From positions 1-55,157 of IMG/VR virus record IMGVR_UViG_2721755660_000006: 55,157 nucleotides of DNA; one strand, written 5' to 3'. Position numbers and translations under genes: made by a program. Under the pieces are notes generated by a model, which was given only the letters and a program-made list of their open reading frames with translations, had not been told where the DNA came from and searched no databases. The stretch comes from a virus (Duplodnaviria; Heunggongvirae; Uroviricota; Caudoviricetes). This document shows, in pieces, positions 29,275 to 48,471 of this stretch. Position 1 is the first letter of the stretch. The number at the start of each line of letters is the position of its first letter.

Positions 29275-29757
29275 TTATTCTTTGCGTATGCACTGCGTCT
29301 TGATGTAGTCCTGCAATCCGGTGATCTTCGCGTCTTTCTCTTTTAGTTGTTCTCTGAGGGATAGATAAGCCGATTCAGCGTCGGGAGTGAGTCTACAGGC
29401 GGCTCCATCAATGCGGCTGGCGGTTCCGGTGGCGTCTGGCACTCGCACGGGTATTGCGTTGACGTGCAACCTGATAGCACCGCTATCAATACCAGCACGC
29501 AGATCAGCAATGTCAGATCTGATAGCTTTAATCTCATCGTGATACCTCTTATCAAGTTTTGATAGTTCGGCGTTTCGCTCCTTCATCTGCTGAATAGTGT
29601 TACTTGCTGTTTTTAGTGCGCCCTGCGTAGTAGTTAGCTCGCTTTGCATTGTGTTTATCACTGACTGGCAGTGACTAAGCGCGGCAACAAGCCCAACAAC
29701 GACACAAACGATAGCGGCGATGATTAACGCCTTTATCTTGTCCACGTTTCCCCCCAT
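29275..29757 (-). CDS. i-spanin (Rz-like)
   Basis: 160 aa; N-terminal TM helix, coiled-coil body, C-terminal LQDYIKTQC resembling lambda Rz; embedded Rz1-like ORF. Confidence 0.8.
29343..29537 (-). CDS. o-spanin (Rz1-like lipoprotein) embedded in Rz in another frame
   Basis: [24 protein letters not shown] lipobox followed by proline-rich region ([12 protein letters not shown]), as in lambda Rz1. Confidence 0.75.
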   Translation of the reverse strand: MRLKLSDLTLLICVLVLIAVLSGCTSTQYPCECQTPPEPPAALMEPPVDSLPTLNRLIYPSENN

Positions 29758-30224
29758 TCACAAACGGCATATTCAACATCACGGCGGTTGATTAAACCTT
29801 GCCATTTTTGACCACCAGCATATATCCAGCGTTTAAGCTGGGCGCACGCTTCGGATTTCTTGCCGTCATTGAGTAGTTTTAACAGTGTGGATGTTTTGAA
29901 GTTGGTAGCGCCTACGTTATAGGCGAATGAATAAAGCGCAGCGCGGGTGAAATCTGATATTTCGACTTTAATATATGGGTCAATCGCTTTTGCGGTTTTG
30001 TGGAGATCCTTGTTTAACAAAGCATCGCATTCTGATTGCGTGTAAGTCTTACCAAGCATGATGTCTTTTCCGGTGTGACCATAGCAAACGGTCCATACGC
30101 CGATAACATCACGATAGGGATCGTACTCCACGCCCTCTAATGGTTTAACCATCACAGCCGCAATAGCGATCGCCCCACCAGCCGCCGCAGCAATAATCTT
30201 ATTCTTCAGCGATTGGCTAATCAT
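29733..30224 (-). CDS. SAR endolysin (phage lysozyme, P21 R-like)
   Basis: N-terminal signal-arrest-release helix ([15 protein letters not shown]) and lysozyme catalytic region [23 protein letters not shown] closely resembling P21 R; start set to MISQSL. Confidence 0.9.
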
Positions 30225-30225
30225 G

Positions 30226-30426
30226 TTACTTATTCCCCATTCGCGCGTCGTGTTCCTCTTGCGCTCGCTTGTTCTCCTGTGATTTGAAGTAATAATTAAC
30301 GGCAAATGTGCCTATGGTTGATAAGATACCCACAAAGACGGCAATATCATTGATGGTTATCGCGCCGAAAAAAGCAGTTACGGCCCCAGTCACATACGCG
30401 CACGCCTCCCGTATTCTGTCGAACAT
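30226..30426 (-). CDS. Class II holin (pinholin-like)
   Basis: 66 aa with two TM segments and charged C-terminus, directly upstream of and overlapping the SAR endolysin start. Confidence 0.8.
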
Positions 30427-30449: not shown

Positions 30450-30470
30450 AACCCGGCGCGGTGCCGGGTA
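30450..30470 (-). terminator. Rho-independent terminator immediately upstream of the holin (candidate tR-prime-like late antitermination target)
   Basis: Minus strand reads CCCGGCACCGCGCCGGG then TTTTTGCTTTGTT, followed by GGAGG Shine-Dalgarno and the holin ATG. Confidence 0.6.
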
Positions 30471-30912: not shown

Positions 30913-31044
30913 TCAATCATCTTCACCCCCAAGATCGTGATAAATATCGTTAGGGTCTTCACCATGTTCCTCGCAAAAACGCTCAAATAGCGCCCAATTT
31001 TCAGAAAGAAACATGATTAATAAATTTTTATACCACTCTTCCAT
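30913..31044 (-). CDS. Hypothetical small acidic protein (43 aa)
   Basis: ATG directly follows the stop of the upstream gene; MEEWYKNLLIMFLSENWALFERFCEEHGEDPNDIYHDLGGEDD. Confidence 0.35.
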   Translation of the reverse strand: MEEWYKNLLIMFLSENWALFERFCEEHGEDPNDIYHDLGGEDD

Positions 31045-31293
31045 TTAATCATCCTCATCGTCTTCATGTTCAGCCAGGAACTCATCAACCACGCGGTAAG
31101 TTACTGGCGGGATGTATTCGAAATCATCAGAATCAAGATCAAGCGTCCTGCTGTCGCCGTCGTCGTCCAGCGTATTCATCCCTAATTCACCGAAAGGGCC
31201 ATACCCAATGTGGCCCAGGTATTCGCAACCAGTCGTAAAGCCAGGGTATTCACCTTTACAACGGATTTTGTAAGGTCTATTTGATGCGCTCAA
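31045..31293 (-). CDS. Hypothetical highly acidic protein
   Basis: 82 aa; C-terminal half is Asp/Glu-rich (DDDGDSRTLDLDSDDFEY...EHEDDEDD). Confidence 0.5.
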   Translation of the reverse strand: MSASNRPYKIRCKGEYPGFTTGCEYLGHIGYGPFGELGMNTLDDDGDSRTLDLDSDDFEYIPPVTYRVVDEFLAEHEDDEDD

Positions 31294-31600
31294 TTTTCGA
31301 TCCCCCGTCTTCCGATTCTGTTATTTTGTATTCCGCGACCTTTTCCGCGCCAATTAATTCGACTTCGTTTTCCGGGAAAGGATTAAGCACCAGCGCAGCA
31401 AAAACAAAGCCCCTGACTTTATTTAGATCTTCAAGGTGTTTTGCATCAAAAGGCGGTTCAGATACGTGGAAGCATTTAACGTGCGCGTCGTCTTCAGTGG
31501 CTACACGGAAACATGCGCCAGGTTGTCCGGCGAATTGTCCATGTTTTTTATCTTCTGAAATAGTGCCACGGAAAACTTTAACGCTGATAAATTTACTCAT
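31277..31600 (-). CDS. Hypothetical protein
   Basis: 107-aa ORF in co-directional gene string. Confidence 0.5.
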   Translation of the reverse strand: MSKFISVKVFRGTISEDKKHGQFAGQPGACFRVATEDDAHVKCFHVSEPPFDAKHLEDLNKVRGFVFAALVLNPFPENEVELIGAEKVAEYKITESEDGGSKIERIK

Positions 31601-31603
31601 TGT

Positions 31604-31885
31604 TTATTCTCCTTCGTAAAGAGTCGTCACCAGTTCGGCGTCAATTAGCGTGTTATGATCTGTATAAAACCCGTGGCGCATTGCGAAAGCTATTTCACCA
31701 GCCATTTTCCGCCACATGGGTAAAGATTCATTCAAGTATGTTTTTTCCAATTCCTCATTGTATGCCAATTCATAAAACCGACCACGATTAACATCTTCAA
31801 TAACGCGGCTGTATTCGCCATCTAACTTGCTATTACCGCGCCATAGTCTGATAACAACCACTGTTTCACTCCTTATTGGGGCCAT
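31604..31885 (-). CDS. Hypothetical protein
   Basis: ORF; probable GTG start after AAGGAG at about 31861. Confidence 0.45.
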   Translation of the reverse strand: MAPIRSETVVVIRLWRGNSKLDGEYSRVIEDVNRGRFYELAYNEELEKTYLNESLPMWRKMAGEIAFAMRHGFYTDHNTLIDAELVTTLYEGE

Positions 31886-31898
31886 CCGGCCCCGTGTT

Positions 31899-32040
31899 TT
31901 ATTCTTCTTCGTCCCCCTTGAATCCTAAACACTCCGCGTATTCGTCAATGCTTAATGCTTCTTCACCTGGTGCCAGTTCTTCAAAATAGCGGGCGTATAG
32001 TTCAAAGACCCAGGCCGGATATTTAGCGTTAGCGTTCATT
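31899..32040 (-). CDS. Hypothetical small acidic protein
   Basis: 46 aa from MNANAKYPAWVFELY; acidic C-terminus. Confidence 0.4.
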
Positions 32041-32136
32041 TTCTTGTCTCCCCTTCCGTCTTTCCTTGACTTATATATAACAAAATGGCACTGCCTGAAC
32101 AATGCCATTTTGTAAACTTTGCGGGGTAGATCACGT

Positions 32137-32361
32137 TTATGTTTCTTCCGTAAAAGTAACCTTCATCGCCCCGTCCGAACTACGGACAACGTAGCGACCA
32201 ATCCCCCGGCGCGGCTCCGCATACCATAAGTGACCGTAAGTGTCAGTCACGACGATAAAAGGCAATTTAGGTGATAACCCCATTGGTTTTTCAGCCGTAT
32301 ACTGTGCGCCTTCCTCAAAACAGCCTAATTCCGACTCGTTACACGTTAAAATCATTTTCAT
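32137..32361 (-). CDS. Small paralog family member 1
   Basis: 74 aa from MKMILTCNESELGCFEEGAQY; shares an F-x-x-G-x-x-Y core and D-x-G-x-h-W pattern with its neighbours. Confidence 0.45.
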   Translation of the reverse strand: MKMILTCNESELGCFEEGAQYTAEKPMGLSPKLPFIVVTDTYGHLWYAEPRRGIGRYVVRSSDGAMKVTFTEET

Positions 32362-32606
32362 ACCCCTACATACGAAAACGCAGCAAAAGCACCACCACCA
32401 GCACGCGCATAAACAAGCGCCGTGCCGCACCCCATCTTATAAAAGCGCCATAACTGGCCTTGATCGTCAGTAATGGCGTGAATATATTCCTGATCCTTTG
32501 CGTCAACCAATGCCGCGCCGACTTCGTAGATCTTGCCATTCTTAAAAAACGCGCTGCATCGTGAATACGTGCATTGATATCTATGATTCCGACTCATAAC
32601 AACCAC
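32358..32606 (-). CDS. Small paralog family member 2
   Basis: 82-aa ORF; FKNGKIYEVGAALVDAKDQEYIHAITDDQGQLW. Confidence 0.45.
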   Translation of the reverse strand: MVVMSRNHRYQCTYSRCSAFFKNGKIYEVGAALVDAKDQEYIHAITDDQGQLWRFYKMGCGTALVYARAGGGAFAAFSYVGV

Positions 32607-32861
32607 CTATTCCGGTTTACTGCCTTCGCGTTCACAAAATACAGCCACTTCATGGAAGTCATACACAATGCGATAATACACCTTGTCTGTGTAATGGAAG
32701 CGGGTAACATAAGCGAAATAAACCTTATCATCATCACCAGTTATCGCCATAGCTCCATCGCCGCCAGGTGCGCCGTGAAGTTGAACGCCGCAATAAATCT
32801 TCCCTTCATCGAAGATATTGCGATCGCGCGTCTGCACTATCTCAAAATATAAATGTTTCAT
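32607..32861 (-). CDS. Small paralog family member 3
   Basis: 84-aa ORF; FDEGKIYCGVQLHGAP...ITGDDDKVYF. Confidence 0.45.
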   Translation of the reverse strand: MKHLYFEIVQTRDRNIFDEGKIYCGVQLHGAPGGDGAMAITGDDDKVYFAYVTRFHYTDKVYYRIVYDFHEVAVFCEREGSKPE

Positions 32862-32870
32862 GCTTGCCCC

Positions 32871-33083
32871 TTAATAACGCACAAAACTAGCGGAAAAATC
32901 AGTGCCTGATATTTCGCCACCCCGATAAGTTGGCATAAATCCCCACACATCCCCACAATCATCAATCAATACAAGCGCCACGCCAACATCACTAATACCA
33001 TTGCCATAAACGATGTGAACATCATAGATTCGCCCAATAGTGAAAACGCTGTCATTGCTTGAATATGAGCATTTAACTTGCAT
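32871..33083 (-). CDS. Small paralog family member 4
   Basis: 70-aa ORF; FTIGRIYDVHIVYG...LIDDCGDVWGF. Confidence 0.45.
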   Translation of the reverse strand: MQVKCSYSSNDSVFTIGRIYDVHIVYGNGISDVGVALVLIDDCGDVWGFMPTYRGGEISGTDFSASFVRY

Positions 33084-33360
33084 TGTCAGCCACCTTTAAA
33101 TAATTTTTCGTGTCAATATCTGCCGGATACCTGGAAAATTGCGCCAGCCATTGTCCGGTAATGTTTTTCACCAGTGCATAATCAAGATCGCCGCAGTAGA
33201 ATACCTGGTACATTGTCCCTTCGTTATCATCCATAACAAAGACCATCGGATCAGTAGTCGCATTGCGCAGCCTGTGAATCGTGTAGGCCTGGCCAGTAGT
33301 GAATTTGTACTCGTTACACGTTGTGCGGCAAAACATCCGGTCAAAATAGCTTTCCATCAA
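33073..33360 (-). CDS. Small paralog family member 5
   Basis: 95-aa ORF; FTTGQAYTIHRL...VMDDNEGTMYQVFY. Confidence 0.45.
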   Translation of the reverse strand: MMESYFDRMFCRTTCNEYKFTTGQAYTIHRLRNATTDPMVFVMDDNEGTMYQVFYCGDLDYALVKNITGQWLAQFSRYPADIDTKNYLKVADNAS

Positions 33361-33608
33361 AAAATCCCCTTATAATCGACCGTGTATTTTGCTATCAGCT
33401 TCCATTCACAATAGCTTTCCATGTCGCGCGGTTGCCAGCCTTTCATGCCTACAGCACCACGCACGCCGTGGCGACGATAATTATCGTTATAGTCAGCTAC
33501 GCACCACGGCTGAAGCACAAACATGTAATTGGCCTCGTTAACCAGGATCGCCACCTGCTTTCCTGTTGCCTTATCTTTCGCCCGGAAATAACTTACCCTG
33601 ATTTTCAT
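33357..33608 (-). CDS. Hypothetical protein
   Basis: 83-aa ORF with GAGGT Shine-Dalgarno. Confidence 0.45.
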   Translation of the reverse strand: MKIRVSYFRAKDKATGKQVAILVNEANYMFVLQPWCVADYNDNYRRHGVRGAVGMKGWQPRDMESYCEWKLIAKYTVDYKGIF

Positions 33609-33822
33609 TTTTAATTACCTCGATCAACATTTCTTCTTCCAGGTTAGCCGGACGTTTACGGAATATCCCGGCAAAAACCAGATCATCGAGTAGGTCTTTA
33701 CGCTTAAATAACCATTCCTTCATTATTACCCCGTCATCGCTGCGATATACGACGCCGTTTTTCAAAAAATAAAAAGTGTGGGTATTTGTCTGAAGGTATA
33801 GATCTTCGTAAACGTCCATGAT
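33571..33822 (-). CDS. Hypothetical protein
   Basis: 83 aa from MDVYEDLYLQ, start just after the upstream stop. Confidence 0.4.
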   Translation of the reverse strand: MMDVYEDLYLQTNTHTFYFLKNGVVYRSDDGVIMKEWLFKRKDLLDDLVFAGIFRKRPANLEEEMLIEVIKNENQGKLFPGER

Positions 33823-33823
33823 A

Positions 33824-34051
33824 TTAACCCTCGACCACTTGCAGCCCGCGCCCCTTGTCGCCAACGAAGTCGCCAAGACTGAACGTATACGACCACGCCG
33901 GATTGATATAATTATCATCAGCACCGTGAGCAATAAGATCCTTGCCCATAATGACGCAGGTCACATCATCAGAGTGAATAACGTCTACTGTTTCCCCTAC
34001 TACGCGTTTTAATGACGGGTAGCCGTGATCGTGCAAGAATTTAACTTTCAT
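33824..34051 (-). CDS. Hypothetical protein
   Basis: 75-aa ORF in co-directional string. Confidence 0.45.
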   Translation of the reverse strand: MKVKFLHDHGYPSLKRVVGETVDVIHSDDVTCVIMGKDLIAHGADDNYINPAWSYTFSLGDFVGDKGRGLQVVEG

Positions 34052-34287
34052 TCGTCTGCCTCCCAGCGGTCAATGCTGATTAAAAAATCCCGGATAGCGT
34101 GGCGTTCATCGCGTGATGGTTTGCGCTTCCGGTAAATTTTAAAATCAAACCATTCCTTTTCTTGTTCGAAGTCCAGATCGTAAGCAAGCGCCTCAATATA
34201 TCCGCATTCGTGATACTGGTACGCCACGCCAGCACGAACAAAAAAGCGGGTTTTATCCCGCTTGTGCTCATAGATTCGCATATTCAC
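34048..34287 (-). CDS. Hypothetical protein
   Basis: 79-aa ORF. Confidence 0.45.
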   Translation of the reverse strand: MNMRIYEHKRDKTRFFVRAGVAYQYHECGYIEALAYDLDFEQEKEWFDFKIYRKRKPSRDERHAIRDFLISIDRWEADE

Positions 34288-34890: not shown

Positions 34891-35102
34891 ATCATATAAT
34901 AAACGTTATCATCAGCTAATAAGTCGGCGTCATCCTGAGTCATGTGTCTGGCCTCAAGGAAAAAATCCTCATCATGCCATTCACTAACAAGTAATCGCGC
35001 CCATTTTCGGCGCTGGCGCTTATTGCGTCGCAGATCATCAAAAGCCTTTAACGCTTTGTCATACGCCCTTACCAGGCGTTTACGGTTACTTTTCATTTTC
35101 AC
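34869..35102 (-). CDS. Hypothetical basic protein
   Basis: 77-aa ORF, Arg/Lys-rich N-terminus. Confidence 0.4.
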   Translation of the reverse strand: MKMKSNRKRLVRAYDKALKAFDDLRRNKRQRRKWARLLVSEWHDEDFFLEARHMTQDDADLLADDNVYYMMCVTICK

Positions 35103-35433
35103 CTCTCAACATCCAATTTCTGTCACATTTAATTGCGAATACCTTAACAGGATCAGGGCCGAATAATGGATGAGTGATAGTTTTTACTTCGTACCCAAAA
35201 TAAGGAAGGTTAATAATCCTGTGTTTTTCGTGGTTGGCAGGGTATCCCCATTTAATAATCAGGCGTTCATATTCCCGCCCTTCCAGACGTTTACGCCAAT
35301 AGTCATTATAAAGCCGGTATTCCTCCACCTTCTTTCCAGTCCATATGGCGTGGAAATATTCCCCTTTCAGATTCAAATGCAGGTCTTTACTTGCCATCGC
35401 TATGATCCTGTAAACAGTCGTTATAGCCTTCAA
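35086..35433 (-). CDS. Hypothetical protein (possible ASCH/PUA-like fold)
   Basis: 115 aa; weak resemblance by eye to ASCH-domain proteins. Confidence 0.4.
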   Translation of the reverse strand: MKAITTVYRIIAMASKDLHLNLKGEYFHAIWTGKKVEEYRLYNDYWRKRLEGREYERLIIKWGYPANHEKHRIINLPYFGYEVKTITHPLFGPDPVKVFAIKCDRNWMLRGENEK

Positions 35434-35659
35434 TGTATCCGGTTAATCCCGTGTTACTCACTGACCAATCAGCCGAACGGCGCTTGATGGCATCATCCAT
35501 CGTTATTTCACCTTTGCGGTGACATCCTGCATCAATGTAACGGTTGACAACTGAAGACAACCGCCCGCGTAACTGTTGTGTTCCGGCGTAATGACGGGCC
35601 GTTTCCGTCAGATCGTTAACCAACTGGCGGTAAATATGCTCTTTTAATTTAGGCTTCAT
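35387..35659 (-). CDS. Hypothetical protein
   Basis: ORF from MKPKLKEHIYRQL. Confidence 0.4.
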   Translation of the reverse strand: MKPKLKEHIYRQLVNDLTETARHYAGTQQLRGRLSSVVNRYIDAGCHRKGEITMDDAIKRRSADWSVSNTGLTGYIEGYNDCLQDHSDGK

Positions 35660-35996
35660 TATCGTCACCCTCGAAATACTGCTCAATCGCACGCTTGACG
35701 TTCATTTCACGCTGATAATTGTTATCGCTATAGATTGCGGCTGCCGATACGTGATCGATAATTTGCTGCAATAAAGCAGGATGAATTTTTATTTTTTCGT
35801 CAAGGACAATACGCGATGGCTTAGGTGCGGTAGCAATATCATAAACGATTTCTATCTCACCACGACCACCGCATCGCGGGCAAACAAACTTATCGTCTTG
35901 ATACAGCATGAAGCCGCAACCTTTTTCAGTTTTTACTACCATGCCGTCATCGTCGCAGTTTTCGCAATACAGCCACCCAATATTAAGTATTTTCAT
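35649..35996 (-). CDS. Zinc-ribbon protein (CxxC...CxxC)
   Basis: MKILNIGWLYCENCDDDG...FVCPRCGGRGEIE gives two CxxC pairs. Confidence 0.45.
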   Translation of the reverse strand: MKILNIGWLYCENCDDDGMVVKTEKGCGFMLYQDDKFVCPRCGGRGEIEIVYDIATAPKPSRIVLDEKIKIHPALLQQIIDHVSAAAIYSDNNYQREMNVKRAIEQYFEGDDNEA

Positions 35997-36186
35997 TGTC
36001 GTTACTCCGCCCGTAAATATGAACCGGCTCAATTGGCACGGCTGGCAATTCACCTTCGTTTAATGCGCTCGCCATACCCAATACCAAACGCGCTTCAGCA
36101 CCAGTGACTTTCTTACACCATGCACCGCCTGTTTTATCTTCAAATAAGATAACGGCAAACTGATCGTTTATTTCCAGCTTATCCAT
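35983..36186 (-). CDS. Hypothetical protein
   Basis: 67-aa ORF. Confidence 0.4.
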   Translation of the reverse strand: MDKLEINDQFAVILFEDKTGGAWCKKVTGAEARLVLGMASALNEGELPAVPIEPVHIYGRSNDNENT

Positions 36187-36914
36187 TATTCACCCCGCGT
36201 CACTCGTTTAATTTCGTTGTCAGCCCGCGCCTCTTCTTTGAACAATTCAGCAATGGCGTCTTCATAGAAAGCCCGGTATTTCTTCCACCATGTTGATCGG
36301 CTTACCGGGAAAACAAGCTGATTAACCGCCTGCCGGACAAGATCTACAGGGAAACGCGAGTACCCACGCCCGCCGCAGTGCTGGCATGTTTTGAACACTG
36401 GCATTTCCGCCGCCTCGCTGGCTGCTTTATCCGGTACTTCGCCACGGCCCTTGCACCGCTGGCAATGGTTTTTAACGTAGCCTTTGCCGCCGCACCGTGC
36501 GCAAATTGTTGATGTGTATTTGCAATATGGATTTGGTAAATGCCCGTGACCGCCGCACTTAGGGCAAACTTTTTCGGTCGCTGCACTCTGGCAGTAATCC
36601 CGAAACGCGAAAACGGCAACAAGAATAATAAGTCCATTGCGCTGATCCTCGTTTAACTCCATCACGTATTCGTAATCTTTTGCCATCGATTTTAAGCGGT
36701 CTATAAGCAACGACACGGCTTTATTTTTTTCAGCTTGCGATAGCTCCATCTTTCCCAAAAAAGCGCTATATCCAAGCTCTACGCGCGATTGCGCCATACC
36801 CGCAGCGGTTAGCGCATCCGTCGTATTAAGAGCGCCCGGGGACGTGCCCCGGCTTTCGTCAGATAATCGCGGTGATTTAGGAAAGTGGAATTTTAGAATG
36901 GATTCTAAATTCAT
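36186..36914 (-). CDS. DnaJ-type zinc-finger protein; candidate late-gene antiterminator (Q-like)
   Basis: 242 aa with four CxxCxG(K/R/H)G repeats (CPKCGGHGH, CARCGGKGY, CQRCKGRGE, CQHCGGRGY); located after the NinG/RusA nin-like genes. Confidence 0.4.
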   Translation of the reverse strand: MNLESILKFHFPKSPRLSDESRGTSPGALNTTDALTAAGMAQSRVELGYSAFLGKMELSQAEKNKAVSLLIDRLKSMAKDYEYVMELNEDQRNGLIILVAVFAFRDYCQSAATEKVCPKCGGHGHLPNPYCKYTSTICARCGGKGYVKNHCQRCKGRGEVPDKAASEAAEMPVFKTCQHCGGRGYSRFPVDLVRQAVNQLVFPVSRSTWWKKYRAFYEDAIAELFKEEARADNEIKRVTRGE

Positions 36915-37500: not shown

Positions 37501-38102
37501 GCTGCCTTTCTCCTTAAGGCGTCCAATTTAGCCTGATAGATGTTTATTAGCTCCTTACATTCTGCGATCGTCCATTTATGCGTATCATTGTTGTTTTCCA
37601 GTGCTACCACCCTTGCGAGGCCAATTTTTCGAATCAGTGCCGGGCGATACCCTCCTATGTTTCCGTCTAATGTCTGGTTGCAGTGCCTGCATTGTTTATG
37701 GCAATTATCCTCGTTAAAGCGAAGGTGTCCTGCGGCGGCAACCGTCCTGTAATGGCCCGCATCCCACCCGCATTGCTCACCGTAGTAAGTCCCGCAGGAT
37801 ATACACGGCAAGCGCGCGTCACGTTCGCGGATATAGGCGTTGAATACGTTTTGAACTTGCTTGATCCAGTAGCTGCGCGGATTTAACTGTTTCCGCTTCC
37901 GGTTGCGTTCTTCCCGCTGGCTATCGCGGCGTTTCTTCCGTTCCATCGCCTTCATAGCCTTTTCACGGTCGCGGCATAGCTGGTCAAACTTCAGTTCTTC
38001 CAGACATTCATCGCTGCACCACGTTTGATTATGATATTTAGGCTCAAAAAAAACGCCGCAGCACTTGCAACGGCGTCTTATGGGTTTTTTAGGGTTTTGC
38101 AT
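37497..38102 (-). CDS. ninG: NinG (Rap) recombination-associated protein
   Basis: Close match by eye to lambda NinG (RRRCK, PRSYWIKQ, RDLPCISCGT, DAGHYRT, LRFNE-N-HKQC); start refined to MQNPKK. Confidence 0.85.
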   Translation of the reverse strand: MQNPKKPIRRRCKCCGVFFEPKYHNQTWCSDECLEELKFDQLCRDREKAMKAMERKKRRDSQREERNRKRKQLNPRSYWIKQVQNVFNAYIRERDARLPCISCGTYYGEQCGWDAGHYRTVAAAGHLRFNEDNCHKQCRHCNQTLDGNIGGYRPALIRKIGLARVVALENNNDTHKWTIAECKELINIYQAKLDALRRKAA

Positions 38103-42031: not shown

Positions 42032-42652
42032 TTAATGCAGTACACGTTTTTCCTGTTCAGGCATCGGCTGTGCGTTTTTCCGTGCATCATTAAGCACAGC
42101 GATAGCCGCCTGTACACCGAAATCATTTGCGCGCATATCATTGCCAACCATTTCACCGTAAAACAGCGGCATAAACGCTTTTACTTCTTCTTCTTTGTGG
42201 CCTTCCTCAATGCATTTCTGCAACATTTTAACTTCAAAGATGTTTTTCATCAGGCCGCGCATAGAATGCAGTGAAACACTACCAAACTGATCCTTGTTCA
42301 ACGGGAAAATAACAGCACTTCCGAACGCGAGCGGATCAACCTCTTCCGGCACTGGTACGCGTCCGAATTCTTCCTCCATGCGCTTCACAAAAGTAAGAGA
42401 GAATACATAACGCGCTACCGATGTTTTTTCTTCCATACTTAAAGACACGTAATCGCGGATTGACGCACCCATCACAATATCAACAACCTGCAGCGCCAGA
42501 TTCAAATCAGCGTCATACGCGCCAGCTTCCATATCTTTCAATACTTCGTGATAATCTTTAATTTCCACTTCGTGAAAGTTTGCATCATCTGTATAGCGAG
42601 TGATCAACATACCTTCATTACCGAGAGAGTAAGCTGTTTTGATGTCGTTCAT
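42032..42652 (-). CDS. Hypothetical protein
   Basis: 206-aa ORF. Confidence 0.5.
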   Translation of the reverse strand: MNDIKTAYSLGNEGMLITRYTDDANFHEVEIKDYHEVLKDMEAGAYDADLNLALQVVDIVMGASIRDYVSLSMEEKTSVARYVFSLTFVKRMEEEFGRVPVPEEVDPLAFGSAVIFPLNKDQFGSVSLHSMRGLMKNIFEVKMLQKCIEEGHKEEEVKAFMPLFYGEMVGNDMRANDFGVQAAIAVLNDARKNAQPMPEQEKRVLH

Positions 42653-44619: not shown

Positions 44620-45260
44620 TAACCCATCTCCCCGTTAAGCTCTGCTACCCGGATGTCATAAACATCTTTTGCCTTGATTCGATGCTCCGATCCTTCCGGT
44701 AGTAATTTCCAGCATTTGCCAAATATTTCACGCAGCTTGTTAGCGTCCTGCGCTTTCGCTGCTGCATCACAGAAACGTGCTAATACTTCATCAGGATTTG
44801 GCGGCGCTTTATTCTGCTGCGGTTGTTGTTTTGGTGGGTTTTTCTGTTGTCGCGGCTGCTGGCCTGTCTGCTTCGCGTAAGCATCAGTATCAGGATCGCG
44901 AGCATCATCTATACAGAATAAACCGTTCAAAGCATATTTACGCGCGTAACTTGATGTTGCTCCTGTTAGCTGGCTGGCGTCCATACCCTTCTTGCTTTCT
45001 TCCTCCCTGGCATAAGCAGTTACCGCTATTACGTCTTCACCGTCGCTTAGCGTCGCCGTTGCTTTCACATAATAGCGATTGCCGATCAGGACAATTTCAT
45101 CACTAACAGTCAGCGTGATATTTTGAAGCAGTGGTTTAACCGCCTCTAAAATATCCTCCGCCGACCTGTAATTATATCCACCAAAATTATTACGCTGATT
45201 TTTCGGCGCGTTCAGCGTTTGCTGAATCGTCCATAGCTTTTTATGTAACTCTGTTTTCAC
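44619..45260 (-). CDS. erf: ERF-family single-strand annealing protein
   Basis: 213 aa; NFGGYNYRSAEDILEAVKPLL signature and Gln/Pro-rich C-terminal region; probable GTG start. Confidence 0.8.
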   Translation of the reverse strand: MKTELHKKLWTIQQTLNAPKNQRNNFGGYNYRSAEDILEAVKPLLQNITLTVSDEIVLIGNRYYVKATATLSDGEDVIAVTAYAREEESKKGMDASQLTGATSSYARKYALNGLFCIDDARDPDTDAYAKQTGQQPRQQKNPPKQQPQQNKAPPNPDEVLARFCDAAAKAQDANKLREIFGKCWKLLPEGSEHRIKAKDVYDIRVAELNGEMG

Positions 45261-45379
45261 TATTTAATCTCCCGTGCTGTTAACACTATGTATAAGGCTT
45301 TATTCGCGGCGCTCCACATTTCGGCATCGTGAAGCATTTCCGCTACTGCCAGTTTGAATTGAAGCGCCTGAATAACCAT
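45260..45379 (-). CDS. Hypothetical mini-protein (39 aa) upstream of erf
   Basis: MVIQALQFKLAVAEMLHDAEMWSAANKALYIVLTAREIK; its stop overlaps the erf GTG start. Confidence 0.35.
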   Translation of the reverse strand: MVIQALQFKLAVAEMLHDAEMWSAANKALYIVLTAREIK

Positions 45380-47154: not shown

Positions 47155-47409
47155 ATGAGTATGCACATGATGAATGAAGCATGGAACGTAAAACTTAACA
47201 GCCCGATCCAAAAACTTGTCTTAATTGCGTTTGCAGAAAAGGCAGACAACAAAGGCCGCGCACATGCTTCACGCGAAGAGATCGCAAAAGTGTGCGAACT
47301 GCCACTGCATACTACTGTTGACGCATTAAATTCATTGATCCGCAAAGGATTCATTAAACGCGCTGACGAATACGGCGACATTTATGACATTGCATTGCCG
47401 GAGGAATGA
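47155..47409 (+). CDS. HTH DNA-binding protein in the Cro position (replisome-organiser-type winged helix)
   Basis: 84 aa; KLVLIAFAEKADNKGRAHASREEIAKVCELPLHTTVDALNSLIRKGFI; stop 3 nt before the next gene. Confidence 0.55.
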   Translation: MSMHMMNEAWNVKLNSPIQKLVLIAFAEKADNKGRAHASREEIAKVCELPLHTTVDALNSLIRKGFIKRADEYGDIYDIALPEE

Positions 47410-47412
47410 TCT

Positions 47413-48471
47413 ATGAAGTGGTTTAAGCATGATAGCGATGCGAACCGCGATGAAAAACTTCAAAACGTTTTATTAGATTATGGCCTGGAAGGGTACGGGC
47501 TTTATTGGTATTGCCTAGAACTAATAACTTATGACGTAGATCAGCACAATCTAACTTTTGACCTACGACATGACGCAAGAATAATTGCGCGAAACGTCGG
47601 ATCTACTGAAAAACGTATAGAAGAAATGATGAAATACTTCATCGAAATTGGTTTGTTTGAATGTTCTCAAGGCCACATAACTTGTTTAAAGTTATTGAAA
47701 AGGCTGGACCAATCAATGACTTCTAAAAGCGCTTACAGGGCCGCCATAAACACAGCGAAGGAGCAATTAAAATTAGAAAAGTTAATCAATCCAACACAAA
47801 AAGGTCATGATAGGGTCATGACCGGGTCAGGAAAGGGTCATGAATTAGAATTAGAATTAGAAGTAGAAAAAGAAAGAGAAAAAGATATATACACTTCGTG
47901 TATTGTCGAAAATGAACAAAAAATGGTCAATCAGGATGGCGTAAACGAAGCGGCATTGCGTTGCCTTGCCTTCTACAACGACAAGGCAGGATGCAAATGT
48001 CGTGATGCTAAGCCATTCGTAGAACTACTGACAGAAACAAAAACACGTAAAGCGTATACGGAGGATGAGATCACATTAGTGATTGAGTGGGCTTTAACCC
48101 AATGGCGTAGCCGTGGTGGAGTACCTAAGCCTATCAACATTTGCCGGGTAACTAAGTTTGATGGGTATTTGGCTGATGCTGAACAATGGCGCAAGCTATC
48201 AGCTACTGTAAACGCTGCCGACGTGGTGGAAGCATTTAACAGCACGTTTGACGGCCTGTTACCACCTGCCGAACTGGATCGGGATCTTGAACGCAAGATC
48301 TATGCGTTCACTGACTACCTGAAAGACAAAAGCATTAACGGCTTTGTCGCCTACTTCGAAACGTTCAAAAACACGGCTTCAGATTTTTACTTCGGCAATG
48401 GCTTCACTGCGACACTTGATTTTCTGCTTAAACCAAAAACGCTACGTGATACGCGCGCTGGCGTTCTTTGA
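47413..48471 (+). CDS. Replication initiation protein / replisome organiser (lambda O-like role)
   Basis: 352 aa; N-terminal MKWFKHDSDANRDEKLQNV...GLEGYGLYWYCLELI typical of phage replisome-organiser N-domains; internal iteron block. Confidence 0.7.
   Translation: MKWFKHDSDANRDEKLQNVLLDYGLEGYGLYWYCLELITYDVDQHNLTFDLRHDARIIARNVGSTEKRIEEMMKYFIEIGLFECSQGHITCLKLLKRLDQSMTSKSAYRAAINTAKEQLKLEKLINPTQKGHDRVMTGSGKGHELELELEVEKEREKDIYTSCIVENEQKMVNQDGVNEAALRCLAFYNDKAGCKCRDAKPFVELLTETKTRKAYTEDEITLVIEWALTQWRSRGGVPKPINICRVTKFDGYLADAEQWRKLSATVNAADVVEAFNSTFDGLLPPAELDRDLERKIYAFTDYLKDKSINGFVAYFETFKNTASDFYFGNGFTATLDFLLKPKTLRDTRAGVL
47795..47895. promoter_or_regulatory. Candidate replication origin: four GGGTCATGA-type iterons plus AT-rich repeat tract inside the organiser gene
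   Basis: AAGGTCATGATAGGGTCATGACCGGGTCAGGAAAGGGTCATGA followed by ATTAGAATTAGAATTAGAAGTAGAAAAAGAAAGAGAAAAAG. Confidence 0.55.

Follow-up and report, generated by a model that had tools for sequence, protein, structure and literature searches.

Six small genes between Q and the holin gene

We analysed a 55,157-nucleotide stretch of DNA (IMG/VR record IMGVR_UViG_2721755660_000006, positions 1 to 55,157; hereafter the window), which is essentially a complete temperate coliphage of the mEp021 (mEpimmI) group, and studied six small minus-strand genes, paralogs A to F, that lie between the gene of the antiterminator Q and the lysis cassette. An earlier note on this DNA had reported a family of five consecutive minus-strand open reading frames (ORFs) in the interval, and all five were found there. 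Gene starts were corrected to the ATG nearest a ribosome-binding site or to overlapping stop and start codons; the earlier ORF versions of 97 and 82 amino acids (aa) had begun at upstream GTG codons. Paralog A (33073-33357, 94 aa) begins at an ATG that shares bases with the stop of the gene before it (TGATG), and the start of B (32871-33083, 70 aa) overlaps the last 11 nt of A. These are followed by C (32607-32861, 84 aa), D (32358-32597, 79 aa), which has an AGGTGG ribosome-binding site 8 nt before its ATG, and E (32137-32361, 74 aa), the start of which overlaps the stop codon of D (ATGA). Genes A to E are packed with such overlaps or with gaps of about 9 nt. The five paralogs stood, but the family was not complete: a sixth copy, F (31045-31293, 82 aa, with a TTG start after a GGGGGA ribosome-binding site), had been missed. 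It lies 0.85 kb downstream of the A-E array, beyond three unrelated genes. The A-E array ends 1.7 kb upstream of the holin gene. From the end of F, the nearest member, to the holin start there are 618 nt, which contain several ORFs.

The motifs quoted in the earlier note were all present. In a MAFFT alignment of the six proteins, the F, G and Y of F-x-x-G-x-x-Y were invariant, a Cys preceded this motif in five of the six, and a D-D-x-G-x-x-W/Y block and a terminal F-x-x-F-like strand were also seen. None of the proteins carries a hydrophobic segment or a signal-like N-terminus, so that they are presumably cytoplasmic. Five of the six are acidic (pI 4.1-5.5), and D is the sole basic member (pI 8.9). 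The C-terminal tail of F is strongly acidic and the protein has a net charge of -15. The last 40 residues of F end in DLDSDDFEYIPPVTYRVVDEFLAEHEDDEDD, and this tail was found on at least four different N-terminal halves; that it might act as a mimic of DNA or of the SSB tail is pure speculation. The ratio of nonsynonymous to synonymous substitution rates (dN/dS) of the orthologs (0.04-0.32), the ribosome-binding sites and overlapping start and stop codons, and the annotation of the orthologs as coding sequences in RefSeq prophages show that A to F are genuine protein-coding genes.

Whether the six proteins resemble one another above chance was assessed in several ways. Smith-Waterman scores were compared with 300 shuffles, and the mean z was 2.47 for the 15 family pairs against 0.09 for 121 pairs including other small ORFs of the block (Mann-Whitney p 5e-6). 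The strongest pairs were B-D (z 8.3), A-B (4.6), C-D (3.8) and A-E (3.5). When subfamily profiles built from ortholog alignments were compared by hhalign, B-D reached a probability of 80%, C-D 77%, A-B 47% and B-F 33%, and family profiles against single-sequence control ORFs gave at most 5%. The family phrog_31142 was matched by both B (8e-7) and D (1e-5); F matched phrog_25234 (E 5e-55), and A, C and E had no PHROG match. Hidden Markov models (HMMs) from which one subfamily had been left out were then run against every window ORF of 35 aa or longer (783 ORFs). In all six cases the gene left out came first among the roughly 778 ORFs that had not been used in training, with E-values of 1e-7 for D, 2e-6 for B, 0.004 for E, 0.0075 for A, 0.04 for C and 0.6 for F. 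The full family HMM had exactly six matches in the window, all at E <=1e-22 (A 2e-26, F 1e-23), and the next ORF was at 1.3. The sequence link was weakest for E, which is tied to the family independently by a predicted fold identical to that of B (see below).

That the resemblance is a matter of chance, or a compositional artefact among spurious ORFs, might be suspected from the pairwise identities, which are only 15-28%, and from pairs such as A-C and E-F, which individually were no better than shuffles. This explanation is refuted by the first rank of every omitted gene and the family z-scores above those of the controls, by two independent structural models that reach the same unique match in the PDB, by dN/dS values of 0.04-0.32 at many synonymous changes, and by synteny kept in nine loci; we regard it as practically excluded. 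No DNA-level repeat longer than about 22 nt was found at the locus, indicating that the duplications are old, and recent duplication was rejected on the same ground. The six genes are ancient copies; that they are diverged paralogs had been proposed in the earlier note for five of them.

Predicted fold and relatives in other phages

B was modelled with AlphaFold2 (AF2) on a 40-sequence family alignment, and E was modelled on its own seven orthologs alone, as a guard against circularity. The best model of B had a predicted local distance difference test (pLDDT) score of 86 (80-86 over all five models) and was all-beta, with six strands (residues 2-8, 19-26, 35-40, 46-48, 55-59 and 64-69) and a 10-residue beta1-beta2 loop. 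The best model of E (pLDDT 84) showed the same strand pattern. The two models independently found the same unique PDB match, Gp54 of phage Bas11 (9AXB), far above any KOW or Sm match. The fold-match values, recorded in unlabelled columns, were 7.1, 1.7 A, 53/64, 13% and 4.3 for B, and 8.3, 1.4 A, 57/64, 12% and 4.6 for E. Release of 9AXB dates to November 2024, which we take to be after the AF2 training set was fixed, so that memorisation of this structure is unlikely. A Foldseek search of BFVD with the predicted barrel returned solely uncharacterised enterobacterial phage proteins (TM about 0.7, probability 1.0, E about 1e-3), several of them from T1-like phages. Structure prediction had been suggested in the earlier note, and it brought out an identity at the fold level that had been missed there: A to F are predicted to have one small barrel fold, six-stranded and SH3-related with a long beta1-beta2 loop, as in Gp54.

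The motif C..F-x-x-G-x-x-Y...D-D-x-G-x-x-W appears in the models to be the signature of this fold. It lies at the turn that leads into beta2 and at the one between beta3 and beta4, and the rest of the surface varies from copy to copy. In Gp54, as encoded in the Bas11 genome, F21-K-K-G24 stands ahead of beta2 and G40-L-T-W43 in the turn between beta3 and beta4, at the positions that F-x-x-G and D-D-x-G-x-x-W occupy in the family. Gp54 is a non-essential 66-aa protein of unknown native function that binds CapRelSJ46, a defence protein with fused toxin and antitoxin, directly at its antitoxin domain and activates it; the barrel partly opens upon binding, and G24D and W43* are CapRel escape mutations (PMC11578894). 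Close homologs of Gp54 from Bas5, Bas8, Bas10 and SECphi27 do not trigger CapRelSJ46, and a possible inhibition of another defence system by Gp54 was proposed in the same study (PMC11578894). The authors of the structure described the six-stranded barrel as a very rare topology without a known native function.

We further ran the family HMM against all 724 ORFs of Bas11 (MZ501085). Besides the C-terminus of gp48, it matched gp71 (E 0.003), gp61 (0.009), the N-terminus of gp79 (0.03) and gp41 (0.4); these are annotated genes of small size, with the family motif at the beginning of the protein. The motif C..F-x-x-G-x-x-Y..D-[DE]-x-G is found in at least five further small Bas11 proteins: gp41 (33759-33929), gp48 (37578-37943, at the C-terminus), gp61 (42369-42554), gp71 (45147-45338) and gp79 (47216-47653, at the N-terminus). 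In hhalign comparisons with the family profile, the P-values were 2e-4 for gp61, 5e-4 for the gp79 N-terminus, 1e-3 for gp71, 3e-3 for gp41 and 3.4e-3 for the gp48 C-terminus, and eight control ORFs gave 0.21 or more. This evidence is consistent but sub-threshold; given these motif-bearing proteins, Bas11 may hold a dispersed set of related barrels, and the fold may be common among accessory proteins of coliphages. Bas11 gp61 also matched phrog_25234 (E 2e-5), the family of F, and like F it ends in an acidic tail. Since neither phrog_25234 nor phrog_31142 has a known function or structure, membership in them adds no mechanism.

Bas11 gp41 belongs to Pfam DUF7244 (PF23896) of the SH3 clan. In Drexlerviridae, DUF7244 was proposed in 2026 as an auxiliary lysis component from its strict co-location with lysis genes and the pinholin (PMC13164509). 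None of A to F matched the DUF7244 HMM by hmmscan, and hhalign of the family against 11 DUF7244 sequences gave P 0.003 and 10% probability, with 46 columns in register from residue 1. A sequence link between the two families is suggestive only.

Distribution, recombination and genomic setting

The earlier note could not assign a family, and the searches agreed: no Pfam match was found for any of A to F at E up to 1, and no NCBIfam or PADLOC match at E up to 0.1. Judged by this, the sequence family of A to F is separate and new. The fold is a known one with no function assigned to it, and its genomic arrangement here is new. The family is confined to coliphages and prophages of the mEp021 (mEpimmI) type. 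A search with the six-protein alignment against 5.8 billion proteins yielded 114 proteins, each of them a member of one of the six ortholog groups or a chimera, and all sources with a named organism were E. coli, phages or uncultured Caudoviricetes. When the family profile was run exhaustively with HMMER over 1.84 billion representative proteins, it gave only 30 matches. The handful of small ones seem to be additional copies or variants within this coliphage family, and the scan did not extend the family. The matches of 600-3000 aa were discarded as artefacts, being DDDGD-like repeats that match the acidic segment of F. By tblastn against 50,697 phage records, B was found in two and F in four, all within the mEp021 phage group, and any part of the array occurred in 25 of 5426 complete E. 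coli genomes, with the full array in one (strain PAR). In the PAR prophage (L009, 4243-4469), the B ortholog is present as two fragments in different frames between intact neighbours, an apparent frameshift pseudogene.

A comparison of copy number across relatives, also suggested earlier, showed a variable block of zero to six copies: six in the window and in MagusPhagus, five in mEp044, four in mEp010, two each in mEp013 and mEp554, and none in mEp021. One of the mEp044 copies sits between RusA and Q. The order A-(extra type)-B-C-D-E...F was kept across nine loci, with single slots filled or empty. This slot-wise presence and absence among close relatives with the same core genes shows that A to F are accessory genes.

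The family had been described as rapidly evolving, and this was not supported. Pairwise Nei-Gojobori estimates for orthologs in seven loci gave dN/dS of 0.04-0.32 (A 0.04-0.06, D 0.04-0.13); C orthologs were 75-78% identical, with an indel, and the gene order was kept. Each ortholog group is under purifying selection. In the most variable segment of B (codons 28-50), dN/dS was 0.3-0.45 and dS was raised in parallel. Between B and its copy in the Ecol_244 prophage (L010), dS was 0.13 in codons 1-27 and 1.5-1.9 in codons 28-70. This parallel rise of dS across the breakpoint indicates that B is an intragenic recombination mosaic with a breakpoint inside the gene and not a product of positive selection, which was rejected at the resolution of the pairwise estimates (dN/dS below 0.5 everywhere).

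Natural chimeras of the family were found in the protein database (P0010, P0097, P0100, P0103, P0109 and P0128, compared with P0125 and P0126). They join the N-terminal half of one paralog to the C-terminal half or acidic tail of another, with the intervening genes deleted. P0010 consists of A(1-45) and the F tail, and P0100 of A(1-16) and E, joined at a common TCNE; this A/E junction falls on a microhomology of 21 nt that codes for TCNE (window positions 32327-32347 and 33302-33322). The N-terminal halves of P0125, P0126 and the mEp013 and mEp010 copies, which have an ordinary barrel C-terminal half, recur with the F acidic tail in P0097, P0103, P0109 and P0128, so that both A-F chimeras and chimeras of other N-terminal halves with F exist in nature. 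E itself occurs as two alleles with a common N-terminal half and different C-terminal halves. The chimera breakpoints cluster just after D-D-x-G-D, and it is here, directly behind the DDxG motif, that inter-paralog recombination exchanges N- and C-terminal halves. The family owes its diversity to the loss of genes from individual slots, to the replacement of alleles and to such recombination among paralogs. New here are the sixth member, the match to Gp54 at the level of the fold and the evidence that barrel halves are swapped.

The region 31000-34100 was 91.5% identical in nucleotide sequence to Escherichia phage MagusPhagus, and 85-88% identical, in patches, to mEp010, mEp044, mEp554 and mEp013. 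A 2025 paper that does not mention the array genes presented the mEp021 group as a new lineage of siphoviruses, Nus-dependent and non-lambdoid, whose genomes have large variable regions (PMC11893012), and we found no mention of the A-F proteins in the literature searched. The location assigned to the genes by the earlier note, an accessory interval between Q and lysis, was correct. The upstream boundary of the block is the Q gene (36186-36914, minus strand; PF03589, E 1e-30), whose stop codon overlaps the start codon of the next gene. About 25 small, co-oriented and tightly packed minus-strand ORFs fill the interval from Q to the holin gene (30226-30426, minus strand; PF16080, E 2e-14), which is preceded by a terminator-like hairpin (30451-30469) and is the first gene of the lysis cassette. 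The lysozyme gene (29733-30224, minus strand; PF00959) follows, and beyond it lie a spanin-like gene and then terminase on the same strand.

At the downstream end of the A-E array there is a terminator-like hairpin with a 15-bp stem (32080-32113, minus strand), followed by a U/A-rich tail. It had a folding energy of -21.6 kcal/mol (z -3.85) and occurs once in the window. Irrespective of the gene before it, the hairpin is kept in six other loci, among them MagusPhagus, mEp010, mEp044 and mEp554. The records of the last three label it a Rho-independent terminator, and it is absent from mEp021 and mEp013. The intergenic element of about 95 nt after E that holds this hairpin (flanks 32040-32136) is highly conserved, and in mEp044 and mEp554 it has an upstream TGTGATC..ATCACA palindrome. 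The element may serve as a terminator, as a processing site or as a site for binding of a regulator. That the hairpin marks a Q-dependent late promoter region was rejected as a core element of the phage because of its absence from mEp021 and mEp013. A scan with the late-promoter consensus showed nothing distinctive, with sites no more numerous than in shuffles, and no promoter-like site was seen upstream of A.

Some further observations concern neighbouring genes. The Q protein carries four CxxCxGxG DnaJ-type zinc-finger repeats, with a PF00684 match (1e-6) below the gathering score, and a small ORF two genes downstream of Q (35649-35996, minus strand) has a weak DnaJ_CXXCXGXG match. The ORF at 35086-35433 (minus strand) has a RefSeq prophage ortholog annotated as 'RNA-binding protein', with a weak, sub-threshold Pfam match here. 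The ORF at 33571-33819 (minus strand, 82 aa), in the Q-holin block, is 96% identical to mEp021_41, annotated as 'virion structural protein', and carries FLKNGVVYRSDDG, which resembles a compressed family motif. This ORF and those at 33824-34051 and 33357-33608 were rejected as extra family members, since neither the family HMM nor hhalign detected them.

Possible roles and comparison with known systems

The best overall explanation, to which we assign a probability of roughly 0.55, is that the genes are an accessory repertoire of paralogs with the Gp54 fold, together with an inferred role as binders. Each copy would serve as a module for binding proteins and, in the course of infection, would have a different target among host, defence or competitor proteins, to the end of counter-defence or host takeover. 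The binding would be direct, through the variable surface of the barrel, possibly with a partial opening of the barrel as in Gp54, and as a corollary some copies could be sensed by immune proteins of the CapRel type, as Gp54 is. This part, drawn by analogy with Gp54, is tentative, and we hold it to be about one-third likely. The host-interaction or anti-defence role suggested in the earlier note is plausible on the same analogy, the fold match to Gp54 being the one concrete lead. A more specific version is unlikely, namely that the array is a repertoire of Gp54-like barrels, each of which would neutralise or decoy a different host immune sensor, for example by binding to a CapRel-type protein at its pseudo-zinc-finger antitoxin domain and not activating it. 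Swaps of barrel halves between paralogs would then be the source of new specificities. If this were true, the Gp54 fold would gain its missing native function, and it would be explained why an immune protein evolved to recognise the fold.

Several points weigh against the best overall explanation. Only one of the five AF2 models of E was confident, and the other four had a pLDDT of about 47. The link to Gp54 is a structural one: no protein of A to F matched PF25180, and hhalign of the family profile against 17 Gp54 homologs was not significant (P 0.33). As a PDB hmmsearch with the family profile also missed 9AXB, and gp54 was not ranked when the family HMM was run against all Bas11 ORFs, a sequence link to Gp54 was rejected. 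The functional role is proposed by analogy, and because the native function of Gp54 is unknown, what the analogy carries is a binding behaviour and not a role. The dN/dS values are well below 1, unlike those of a classic arms-race surface. As a generic scaffold, a small barrel of the SH3-like kind might just as well bind nucleic acid or peptidoglycan. Finally, the array may be expressed either by early read-through past Q or as Q-dependent late genes.

The other explanations that we considered are all weaker. The genes might encode auxiliary lysis proteins with an SH3-like barrel that, in the manner of DUF7244, modulate endolysin or holin or bind the cell wall at lysis. They share a strand with the lysis cassette and precede it, and gp41 of Bas11 has the same motif, as MKVKC..Y-x-E-G-x-x-Y..KDESG (hhalign P 0.003) in a family for which a lysis role was proposed from gene position (PMC13164509). 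That role is itself a hypothesis, however, and the window proteins miss the DUF7244 HMM. The array is 1.7 kb from the holin gene, with several unrelated genes and two terminator-like hairpins between; the absence of a signal peptide or membrane segment leaves the proteins no route to peptidoglycan before lysis; and there are six diverged copies that are lost slot by slot, with none in mEp021 despite the same lysis cassette. We consider this explanation improbable.

It is similarly doubtful that the genes are moron-like cargo for lysogenic conversion or superinfection exclusion, expressed from the prophage and protecting or benefiting the lysogen. The interval between Q and lysis often carries such cargo in lambdoid phages, the conserved hairpin bounds the array downstream, the adjoining conserved intergenic sequence holds a weak extended -10-like TGTTATATA, and the distribution among prophages is patchy. 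However, no promoter-like site precedes A and the genes are translationally coupled in one long co-oriented operon, no PADLOC defence model was matched, and the same motif and predicted fold are seen in strictly lytic T1-like phages, including Bas11. The position directly downstream of Q would also suit small barrels that, like Sm, KOW or cold-shock domains, bind nucleic acid and tune phage transcription, antitermination or RNA stability, an explanation we find the least likely of these three. Acidic proteins, as five of the six are (pI 4.1-5.5, with a net charge of -15 in F), are poorly suited to nucleic-acid binding, the KOW and Sm matches were far below Gp54, and no RNA- or DNA-binding family was detected in the Pfam and NCBIfam scans.

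With six copies here, several likely in Bas11 and many relatives in BFVD, the Gp54 fold is perhaps not rare in coliphages. The copies form a natural panel of variants with which to ask what use the fold is to the phage and which variants are seen by sensors of the CapRel or other types, and the natural half-barrel chimeras mark where the scaffold tolerates recombination. If the copies are counter-defence binders, the array is a compact repertoire of paralogs in the accessory region of a prophage; if they are not, the family is an ordinary one, newly delineated among the small hypothetical proteins of phages.

Among known systems, a canonical SH3 domain, such as that of RecD (5LD2), has five strands, whereas the barrel predicted here has six, the sixth replacing the 3-10 helix, and it lacks the signature of canonical SH3 domains for binding proline peptides. 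DUF7244 proteins resemble the family in being small and all-beta, in their N-terminal motif (MKVKC, aromatic-x-x-G-x-x-Y, D-E-x-G) and in being encoded upstream of the holin gene on the same strand. They are shorter (56 aa) and single-copy and immediately adjoin the pinholin gene, whereas the array is multi-copy and lies 0.6-1.7 kb from the holin gene. Gp54 (9AXB; PF25180, 'Phage antiviral trigger protein Gp54') has neither the D-D motif nor the N-terminal Cys of the A-F family. It is encoded by one gene under its own promoter in a T1-like phage that is lytic, whereas six paralogs are encoded here in an operon of a temperate phage. Like A to F, it is small (66 aa versus 70-94 aa), cytoplasmic and acidic, and the product of a non-essential accessory gene of a coliphage.

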